From a virus, in UHGV virus genome UHGV-1632131: a stretch of DNA of 25,098 nt. One strand, 5' to 3'. Positions within the stretch are counted from its first letter, which is position 1; each line of letters starts with the position of its first letter. Positions 23,395 through 24,755 of the stretch are shown here, in pieces. The translations under genes were made by a program, and so were the position numbers. Under the pieces are notes generated by a model. The model was not told where the DNA came from, did not search any database, and saw only the letters and a list, made by a program, of their open reading frames with translations.

Positions 23395-24755
23395 CACTGG
23401 TTAATTGGGAAGAGCATCGTGCCCGGTTTCTGGCGTTGAAAGAGGAAAAAGGGATCACGGTAAAGGAATACTGTGAACAAAATGGCCTTAGTTTCAACAC
23501 TGCCAGAAAGCATCTCAATATGAAAAAAAATGAGGTGCAGGCCAAAGTTAAACCATCAAAGAACCGCGCCAGAACACGCCAGCAACCCCGTGCTGGTGGG
23601 ACAAAAAGACAACAACGAGCGAGCGGAAAAGAATCAGAATTTACAAAAACTGACAATAGGCCAGCGACAAGTCAATTCAGGGAGATGCCGCGCAAGCGTA
23701 ACGAGGATCATGCTGATAAGCCCTTTGATAACAGTGAGTTAGTGGATTTATCAAAGGGATCATTTGCCGATAAAAAAGCAAAAATGATCCCAGAAAAGGA
23801 TAAAAAGGCATCTTCAAGTCAGGGATCATTGCAAATGATCCCTGGCGAATCAGCACAATGTGCCACCTTGCCGTCGAAAAATGTCGCCCGTGAAATGATG
23901 CAGAACGGTGCAGCTGAACATCTGCGTAAGGCCATACTGATGGCTCAGGAACGCGCCATAGAATACCAGTCAATTGTAGACATGGAGGCGGCACGGCTAC
24001 GTAAAGAAATTGATATTTTAGGCGATGGCGAGCCGGAAGGGATGCACCCGGCCCAGCGTCTCTGCGGCCTCATGCAGGATGCCGCCTATTACATGAACGA
24101 CTTCATCAGCCGCCTCGCAGCCATTTATCAGACAGAGCAAAAACTCCAGCAAGGCCAGGAAAAACTGATTCAGGGGGCGCGGCAGCAGGCATTTAAAGAG
24201 GCTGAGGCCAGAGAAAAACTGGACATTGCACGCCTACAGGCAGAGCAACGTAGCAAAGAGATTGACTATCGTCTTGGCGCTGATGCACGCGCCGCCAGGG
24301 TTATCGCAACCGCTATACGTATGCGCGAGCGCGAGGAACTGGACGATATAGGTGTTGCGGAATACATCGAGCGGCAAGGGGTAAGTGTTCCTGCAATCCT
24401 GGCTGCGCGTGCGGCGAAAGCCATCACGCTTCTGGAACCGCCAATTTCTGACAGCAATGATGTTGATGATGAACAACTGGACAAAGAAGCGCGGGAGTTC
24501 GCCTCACTCCAGGCTAACCATCCGCAGTGGTTGGCAGATCGCCGTGCCGATGTGGCAACAATAGTTGAAGACCTGGGGTGTGGTGATTATGACCAAAATG
24601 GTGAGCGTAAGGCAGGTGAATTCGAGTCCAACGATGATGAATTGGATATAGACCCCTCCGCAACGGCTGAAATTTACGGCGATTACGACGCGTCAGATAC
24701 AGAGTATGACGGCGGATATGATGAAATCGCCATAGAATCGCCAGAGGCCGATTAA
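23391..24755 (+). CDS. pacA: terminase small subunit (PacA-like) containing the pac-like site
   Basis: N-terminal HTH (ITVKEYCEQNGLSFNTARKHL), basic linker, strongly acidic C-terminus (DDELDIDPSATAEIYGDYDASDTEYDGGYDE); stop overlaps the ATG of a Walker-A ATPase gene; a GATC-hexamer cluster lies inside the gene as in P1 pacA. Confidence 0.6.
   Translation: MTLVNWEEHRARFLALKEEKGITVKEYCEQNGLSFNTARKHLNMKKNEVQAKVKPSKNRARTRQQPRAGGTKRQQRASGKESEFTKTDNRPATSQFREMPRKRNEDHADKPFDNSELVDLSKGSFADKKAKMIPEKDKKASSSQGSLQMIPGESAQCATLPSKNVAREMMQNGAAEHLRKAILMAQERAIEYQSIVDMEAARLRKEIDILGDGEPEGMHPAQRLCGLMQDAAYYMNDFISRLAAIYQTEQKLQQGQEKLIQGARQQAFKEAEAREKLDIARLQAEQRSKEIDYRLGADARAARVIATAIRMREREELDDIGVAEYIERQGVSVPAILAARAAKAITLLEPPISDSNDVDDEQLDKEAREFASLQANHPQWLADRRADVATIVEDLGCGDYDQNGERKAGEFESNDDELDIDPSATAEIYGDYDASDTEYDGGYDEIAIESPEAD
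23704..23841. other. pac-like packaging site: cluster of five GATC-containing TGATCC/GGATCA hexamers
   Basis: GATC at 23706, 23758, 23786, 23824 and 23837, each within TGATCC or its complement; extended repeats AGGGATCATT(T)GC (x2) and AAATGATCCC (x2). The P1 pac site is built from Dam-methylatable TGATCA/G hexamers inside pacA (established knowledge). Confidence 0.5.

Follow-up and report, generated by a model that had tools for sequence, protein, structure and literature searches.

The pacA locus and its GATC cluster

This analysis concerns a stretch of 25,098 nucleotides (nt) of the virus genome UHGV-1632131, hereafter the window, and in particular a cluster of five GATC sites within its pacA gene. 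Pac is the DNA signal where the PacA/PacB pacase begins packaging by the headful, and an earlier reading of the letters alone, here called the original prediction, had taken the cluster for a signal of this kind. At the right end of the window, lpa, pacA and pacB follow one another on the plus strand, in the gene order of P1 and D6. The first (23002..23394) encodes a late promoter activating protein (Pfam PF25716 BPP1_LPA, E=6e-48). The second, pacA (23391..24755), encodes a pacase subunit of the small-terminase type, 454 amino acids (aa) in length. Only the 5' part of pacB (24755..25098), encoding the large terminase or pacase B, is present before the gene runs off the window; it matches phrog_2 and phrog_5989, 'terminase large subunit', and its counterpart is annotated as pacB in D6 and as a terminase in related plasmids.

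The DNA of the pacA open reading frame (ORF) is 99% identical to genes annotated 'DNA pacase A subunit' on ~80-kb non-mobilizable plasmids of Shigella dysenteriae and E. coli, and the encoded protein shares 73% aa identity with PacA of phage D6. It matches phrog_1711 'terminase' over its full length (E=3e-150), and residues 1–104 match the small-terminase families phrog_370 and phrog_51; no Pfam family was found for the protein. Following pacB, D6 and the related plasmid have the order c1, rox, dre, and the corresponding P1 order is lpa-pacA-pacB-c1-lox-cre. From this context and homology it follows that the window is part of a D6-like phage-plasmid belonging to the P1 supercluster.

The five GATC sites lie at 23706, 23758, 23786, 23824 and 23837, and thus occupy 135 bp. 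In gene coordinates these are positions 316, 368, 396, 434 and 447, so that the cluster covers nt 316–450 of a D6-like pacA, in agreement with the earlier placement at about 310–450 bp into a pacA-like ORF. The repeated decamers in both orientations that had been described are also there: AGGGATCATT occurs at 23755–23764 and 23821–23830, and AAATGATCCC at 23782–23791 and 23833–23842. Four of the five sites are exact AATGATCCC 9-mers, arranged as inverted pairs. Successive sites are separated by 52 (sites 1 and 2), 28, 38 (sites 3 and 4) and 13 bp. Two exact inverted repeats result, one with 13-nt arms (23755–23767/23831–23843) and the other with 11-nt arms separated by 3 nt (23820–23830/23834–23844).

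Site by site, the putative pac recognition region (23704..23842) reads as follows. Site 1 (23704..23711, minus) is AGGATCAT, or ATGATCCT on the minus strand, and its GGATCAY is kept in four D6-type lineages. Site 2 (23756..23764, minus) is GGGATCATT, with AATGATCCC on the minus strand, and contains a Ser codon, TCA, that is the same in five lineages. Site 3 (23783..23791, plus) is AATGATCCC and coincides with ten invariant alignment columns in a row; its Ile codon ATC is the same in all lineages, while the next codon, for Pro, varies. Site 4 (23822..23830, minus; GGGATCATT) forms with site 5 (23834..23842, plus; AATGATCCC) a 21-bp palindrome at 23822–23842 with 9-bp arms and a 3-bp spacer, and site 5 itself has nine invariant columns, including an invariant Ile ATC codon. 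Every one of the five reads GGATCA/TGATCC, never TGATCA/G. The original prediction of a variant hexamer, TGATCC in place of TGATCA/G, is to this extent borne out; as a definition of the repeat it is too narrow, since what is conserved is GATCCC together with an A-rich flank 5' of it.

Is such a cluster unusual? It is the tightest group of five GATC sites both in the window and in a near-identical 79.7-kb replicon (135 bp versus 321 bp for the next best), and the local enrichment that had been proposed as a check is present, the density being ~11 times background. It is not decisive by itself, because uniform random placement yields a cluster this tight in 11% (window) or 20% (replicon) of trials. 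The clustering of the 7-mer that the sites share, ATGATCC/GGATCAT, is significant and is decisive where the GATC count is not. Eight copies are found in the window, five of them in the 135 bp of the cluster, for which we estimate a chance probability of the order of 1e-7. The related replicon has 12 copies, only four of them within the pacA cluster, and random placement of 12 copies put five within 135 bp in 0 of 200,000 trials.

Three further observations at the cluster were set aside. An inverted repeat between sites 1 and 2 (23716–23731/23748–23763) is not conserved in the D6 and E. fergusonii types and was treated as chance. A 326-aa 'truncated PacA' (protein cluster P0011, 310 members), which starts with MAKMIPEE inside the GATC cluster, was rejected as a lesion or DNA end: the upstream 384 nt are intact in these contigs, and the internal Met is therefore a start-site annotation artefact. 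Finally, a contig of an isolate draft genome (IMGVR_UViG_2537562191_000021) starts one base after the first GATC of the cluster, at pacA nt 320; as a proxy for physical DNA ends this is one case among 29 loci, which may be a coincidence or a real end, and we treat it as an anecdote.

Codon-level constraint on the cluster

The comparison covered 28 distinct pacA sequences of the D6-like kind, taken from records of phages, plasmids and IMG/VR. GATC is found at the same five gene positions in 26 of them. In a codon alignment of lineages that are 59–75% identical, nt 150–460 form the least conserved segment of the gene, with a pairwise column identity of 0.60–0.61 versus 0.81–0.84 in the flanking parts. 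Against this background the GATC repeats are conspicuous, forming stretches of as many as ten invariant columns.

Codon choice indicates what is being conserved. Among degenerate codons whose amino acid is invariant, 17% (32/188) are identical across five lineages; of those that overlap a GATC, all four are (Asp GAT, Ser TCA and two Ile ATC), while the Pro codons immediately after them vary freely. The same was seen in ten lineages drawn from the wider clade, where all 22 x-Ile-Pro tripeptides of the linker contain GATC, kept as G-ATC-CC. The residue before Ile-Pro may be Met, Lys, Leu (TTG) or Val (GTG), and its codon ends in G every time. When it is Lys, the codon is AAG in seven of seven cases, though AAA makes up 70% of the Lys codons of the linker; likewise, Ile is ATC in 22/22 of these tripeptides versus 34% elsewhere in the gene. 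The 7-mer is moreover used in several reading frames, encoding Asp-His or Asn-Asp-Pro as well, and Gly-to-Arg changes (GGA to AGA) still retain the GATC. Judged by codon choice and by this use of several frames, the constraint acts on the DNA and not on a peptide repeat.

The part of the protein encoded here appears well suited to carry such a burden. An AlphaFold (AF2) model of PacA built on 16 homologues has a confident N-terminal domain (aa 1–45) of three helices, aa 6–20, 24–31 and 35–42, with a predicted local distance difference test score (pLDDT) of 76–89. The following linker (aa 47–160; 23529..23870, plus), poorly conserved at the nucleotide level, is predicted to be disordered, with pLDDT below 50 at aa 47–123 and 125–160. 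The cluster falls in the codons for aa 106–150, and would thus sit in a stretch of pacA whose product, a disordered linker, leaves room for constraints at the nucleotide level. A fold search of the PDB with the model gave nothing significant, the helix-turn-helix (HTH)-like matches of ~50 residues being weak, with E above 1, and a profile search of PDB sequences with PacA gave no match.

GATC clusters in pacA across the family

The comparison of pacA was extended to 22 lineages: P1; plasmids of Pantoea, Serratia, Xenorhabdus, Citrobacter, Leclercia, Enterobacter and Raoultella; four contigs from metagenomes or assemblies (Logan and JGI); and the D6 types. A profile scan of genome contigs with a 6-sequence pacA alignment gave seven loci. 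GATC clusters are present in pacA of all 22 lineages, at ~nt 145–500. Between nt 121 and 520, the D6 clade has 14.2 GATC per kb versus 2.7 in the rest of the gene (p=1.7e-13), and the P1-type lineages have 16.4 versus 5.2 (p=5.6e-7).

What differs between the two groups is the flank. P1-type lineages have TGATCA at 33 of 46 sites and GATCC at one, and the D6 clade has GATCC at 52 of 57, GATCCC at 46 and TGATCA at one, with the consensus AAATGATCCC. Conservation within the repeat is highest at the GATC core; the flanks have switched between the clades. In a neighbour-joining tree of PacA the users of GATCCC are monophyletic and nested among users of TGATCA; TGATCA is therefore probably ancestral and the switch to GATCCC probably occurred once. 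The repeats of each arm in the D6 clade are arranged as GGGATC ... GATCCC, that is, (-)(-)...(+)(+), so that dyad symmetry arises between separate half-sites and not within one hexamer.

The third helix of the PacA model, codons 35–42 (FNTARKHL; conserved NTARKHLN motif at aa 36–43; 23493..23516, plus), is a candidate recognition helix and contains K40. Residue 40 is the only column in aa 1–45 that perfectly separates users of GATCCC (Lys, NTARK) from users of TGATCA (Arg, NTARR). Many columns outside aa 1–45 also separate the two clades, and the change at residue 40 is one phylogenetic event; hence we regard K40/R40 as a lead for the specificity switch and not as statistical proof of co-evolution.

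Architecture varies as well. In all lineages but one sub-branch the sites are laid out in two parts, a left arm at nt ~145–270 and a right arm at ~320–500. The sub-branch consists of D6, an E. coli type of 71% identity (Ec71), the E. fergusonii type and the window. In its nearest outgroups the left arm is carried by 12 nt (GGGGATCATTTAGGGGATCATTCC in Enterobacter hormaechei) where the D6 types have a gap; the D6/window sub-branch has instead gained sites 316 and 434.

Two other members of the family deserve mention for their own sake. The left arm of the Pantoea/Enterobacter pacA, at nt 154–214, has six TGATCA at an exact spacing of 12 bp, encoding (D-H/Q-x-x) repeats, which makes it the family's most regular pac-like array. 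The 'Acinetobacter venetianus' plasmid CP060164.1 was considered as a control from a host lacking Dam and proved uninformative: its pacA is of the Pantoea type, with TGATCA repeats and a frameshift after codon 44, in a locus of 56% GC, and the host assignment looks doubtful.

Comparison with known packaging signals

P1 pac is an experimentally defined region of 161–162 bp inside pacA, in which two arms of TGATCA/G hexamers (HEX4 and HEX3) accompany a site for integration host factor (IHF) and where cleavage by PacA/PacB is Dam-regulated; the arms and the IHF site are described in PMC10028697. In the same work, synonymous recoding of the hexamers cut phage packaging ~9-fold (PMC10028697). Cleavage in P1 is annotated ~275–285 nt into pacA, between the GATC hexamers at 195–229 and those at 325–348. 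Analysis of the PhageTerm type recovers the known P1 cuts (PMC5557969). The cluster in the window has in common with P1 pac its place in the 5' third of a homologous pacA, in the part that codes for the linker, as well as the lpa-pacA-pacB-c1-lox/rox context and the use of multiple short repeats with a GATC core. Unlike the palindromic TGATCA/G of P1, the repeat is the asymmetric GATCCC (AAATGATCCC) in inverted pairs. The layout is a single 135-bp cluster of five sites, in contrast to 4+3 arms around a ~96-bp gap, with nothing equivalent to HEX4, the ancestral left arm. The helix of PacA likewise differs, with K40-H41 in the window and R40-Y41 in P1. The view that the locus mirrors P1 pac thus holds for a GATC-repeat signal embedded at the homologous place in pacA, and fails for the architecture, the left arm being missing and an IHF consensus, within one mismatch, not having been found.

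Putative pac regions, as defined in this analysis, were also found in other pacA genes of the D6 clade (Enterobacter hormaechei p60214CZ_1, a Raoultella plasmid, and Logan and JGI contigs). Like the window, they have the GATCCC repeat in the inverted (-)(-)...(+)(+) arrangement, a helix of the ARK type and a homologous right arm; unlike it, they have a left arm of two to five sites at nt ~154–268 and lack the gained sites 316 and 434.

Embedding of pac in the small-terminase gene, where it is read by the gene's own product, is also seen in other headful phages (for example P22 gene 3, SPP1 gene 1 and Sf6). The pac sites of those phages are not known to be built on Dam sites, nor are their terminases known as homologues of PacA.

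Interpretation

We consider it likely that the cluster serves this D6-like phage-plasmid as its pac site, or at least as the recognition part of one. The selection on the sites, their positional homology with P1 pac and the clade-wide flank all argue for it. Our best reading is that of a Dam-controlled pac recognition site of a variant type, for which we infer cleavage, methylation dependence and specificity. The type of system is known from P1. According to the literature available, the GATCCC repeat, its use in inverted pairs, the one-arm layout free of an IHF consensus and the switch that tracks K40/R40 would be new; a description of a D6-type pac was not found in the literature searched, the D6 genome paper, which may comment on the site, being beyond that search.

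By analogy with P1, the N-terminal HTH-like domain of PacA would bind the GATCCC repeats as inverted pairs (GGGATCATT ... AATGATCCC), with binding or cleavage set by the Dam methylation state of the GATC cores. Host Dam would methylate the cores, probably together with a D12-class N6-adenine methyltransferase (301 aa; PF02086, E=1e-56) encoded by the 99%-identical replicon. The gene, unannotated, lies outside the window (NZ_CP026808.1 19192–20097), directly after rdgC and a 226-aa ORF, where P1 has hrdC-dmt; like P1, the element probably provides for Dam-type methylation itself. This gene, and a GATC core that stayed invariant when the flanks switched between clades, lend indirect support to a regulation of cleavage by adenine methylation. 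The 226-aa ORF carries an 'FPPC' motif, and the arrangement looks like a split version of the bifunctional dmt of P1.

PacB would cut within or beside the cluster, and packaging would proceed rightward via pacB and c1 to rox, ~3.7 kb off, so that virions of the first headful would carry rox in their terminal redundancy. A rox-like site lies 3.7–3.8 kb rightward of the cluster in the 99%-identical plasmid, in keeping with rightward packaging that leaves the first headful with a recombination site in its terminal redundancy; pac and lox of P1 are a comparable 4.0 kb apart. Sternberg's work on P1 reportedly gives the rationale for a recombination site at that place. The rox-like site itself (TAACTTTAGATAATTAGTATTATTTAAAGCTA; NZ_CP026808.1 10150–10181, outside the window) has four differences from D6 rox, the spacer included, which may reflect a Dre-type recombinase with an altered target.

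Several points weigh against a pac site. The GATC density is not significant by itself once the scan is corrected for, so we do not use it as a main argument. Two D6-like natural variants each lack one of the five sites, which makes individual sites dispensable. The ~90–100-bp GATC-free gap in which P1 pac is cleaved is missing, as is the left arm throughout the D6 sub-branch. In a scan that recovers the annotated IHF site of P1, the IHF consensus (WATCAANNNNTTR, up to one mismatch) was not found in the first 560 nt of any D6-type pacA, IHF sites being degenerate. The GATC specificity of the D12 methyltransferase is also an assumption on our part.

One rival reading is that the cluster is only the surviving right arm of a formerly bipartite pac, with initiation moved or working differently. 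The cut might be far from the cluster, a second, unrecognised element might be involved, or headful initiation might be of low specificity. Only the window and the E. fergusonii, D6 and Ec71 types are without the left arm, which all other lineages have; D6-type pacA lacks an IHF consensus; and single sites have been lost in natural variants. On the other hand, the sub-branch gained sites 316 and 434, and all five sites are under synonymous-site constraint, which is unexpected in a decaying remnant. D6 itself is viable, moreover, and has been propagated as a phage on E. coli C600 (record MF356679). We think such a remnant unlikely, and it is the rival that deserves weight.

A pac site also has to be set against some other function dependent on Dam or SeqA, such as an origin-like or sequestration element or methylation-sensitive control of pacA/pacB. 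The oriR of P1 has a comparable dense group of GATC, five GATC-containing repeats in ~55 bp, and the GATC core being the most conserved part of the repeat would suit such a role too. In P1, however, these repeats stand beside DnaA boxes and RepA iterons, whereas the cluster in the window is inside a terminase gene with neither nearby. DnaA boxes, allowing one mismatch, were not found within 6.8 kb (the nearest is at 16886), and matches resembling promoters or terminators were not found inside the cluster. The replication functions, repB for the plasmid and a lytic replication gene, are located elsewhere on the 99%-identical replicon, and the cluster is positionally homologous to the mapped pac of P1. 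A function of this kind is accordingly quite improbable.

The repeats could in principle be a by-product of coding, reflecting a peptide motif (G-S-[FL] ... M-I-P) needed in the PacA linker. Ile-Pro (I133, P134) is indeed invariant or nearly so in a 16-sequence alignment that reaches down to 37% identity, and both copies of ATGATCCC share one reading frame. The codon evidence contradicts a peptide origin: the residue before Ile-Pro changes while its final G does not, Lys and Ile are held to AAG and ATC, Gly-to-Arg changes spare the GATC, and the motif recurs in other frames as D-H and N-D-P, all in a segment predicted to be disordered. We give this explanation very little credence. That the GATC sites came together by chance, in a coding segment rich in A and in Lys codons, would be allowed by uniform placement of the bare tetramer but can hardly be entertained: the sites share extended flanks whose 7-mer clustering is so improbable, GATC enrichment is family-wide, and positions kept across lineages with saturated synonymous divergence exclude it.

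If the cluster is pac, a broader proposal can be made. The D6 clade may have evolved an orthogonal packaging specificity based on methylated, asymmetric GATCCC half-sites in inverted orientation; the switch would be due largely to R40K, with residue 41, and the D6/window site would be a single arm independent of IHF. Taken as a whole this is tentative, and rather less likely than not.

Other features of the window

The motif pair TGATCC/GGATCC had also been noticed in a candidate small RNA, and it does occur there, with TGATCC at 19640 and GGATCC at 19668. A link to pac is unsupported: in the predicted fold the two pair with each other as complementary arms of an inner stem, which explains their presence, and they lack the AATGATCCC 9-mer. 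TGATCC/GGATCA occurs 19 times in the window. The surrounding region (19620–19745) forms a long and very stable hairpin (-59 kcal/mol, z=-6.6) whose outer stem has 15 bp; a stem and T-run resembling an intrinsic terminator come next. It is 97% identical in D6, far above the conservation of pacA, and has no match in Rfam. We regard it as a candidate small RNA or structured element.

Chi (GCTGGTGG) is very strongly over-represented: the 25-kb window has 19 copies where 0.74 are expected (shuffles gave at most four), 14 of them on the plus strand, and the 79.7-kb replicon has 71. A high density of Chi is known for P1. One copy (23592–23599, plus) lies ~110 bp left of the cluster, and the bias toward the plus strand is strongest in the ~40 kb left of the putative pac. 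Chi orientation was rejected as a marker of the packaging origin, as there is no clean switch of polarity at the cluster.

The genes lpa and pacA overlap by 4 nt (ATGA, 23391–23394), which leaves no intergenic room for a late promoter in the style of P1 LPpac; in P1, by contrast, an 85-bp spacer between the two genes holds LPpac. Further upstream, a 191-aa ORF (21924–22499) has a Tad2-like (Thoeris anti-defence 2) domain (PF11195, E=7e-11). Its counterpart in the related plasmid is annotated 'MW1434 family type I TA system toxin', and it is kept two genes upstream of lpa in contigs of the D6 clade. Three tRNA genes are found on the plus strand at 20205–20276, 20282–20354 and 21319–21391 (Rfam RF00005, 63–75 bits).

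Significance

P1 pac is the textbook example of a methylation-gated packaging signal and the basis of the phagemid and PAC vector technology derived from P1. GATC clusters are kept at one spot in pacA throughout the P1 supercluster, and one large clade, common in plasmids of E. coli, Shigella, Salmonella, Klebsiella and Enterobacter, has changed the flanks, the symmetry and, in a sub-branch, the two-arm architecture. This would amount to a natural experiment in which the specificity of a terminase for DNA evolves while methylation control stays, with K40/R40 as a single-residue candidate for the switch. Should the orthogonal specificity be real, elements of the P1 and D6 types would not package each other's DNA, and the two signals would be usable as orthogonal phagemid packaging tags, with the D6-type signal a possible second one for phage-based DNA delivery. 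The comparison also lets pac be predicted from sequence in the many D6-like phage-plasmids of clinical isolates, which bears on the DNA that these elements can transduce.

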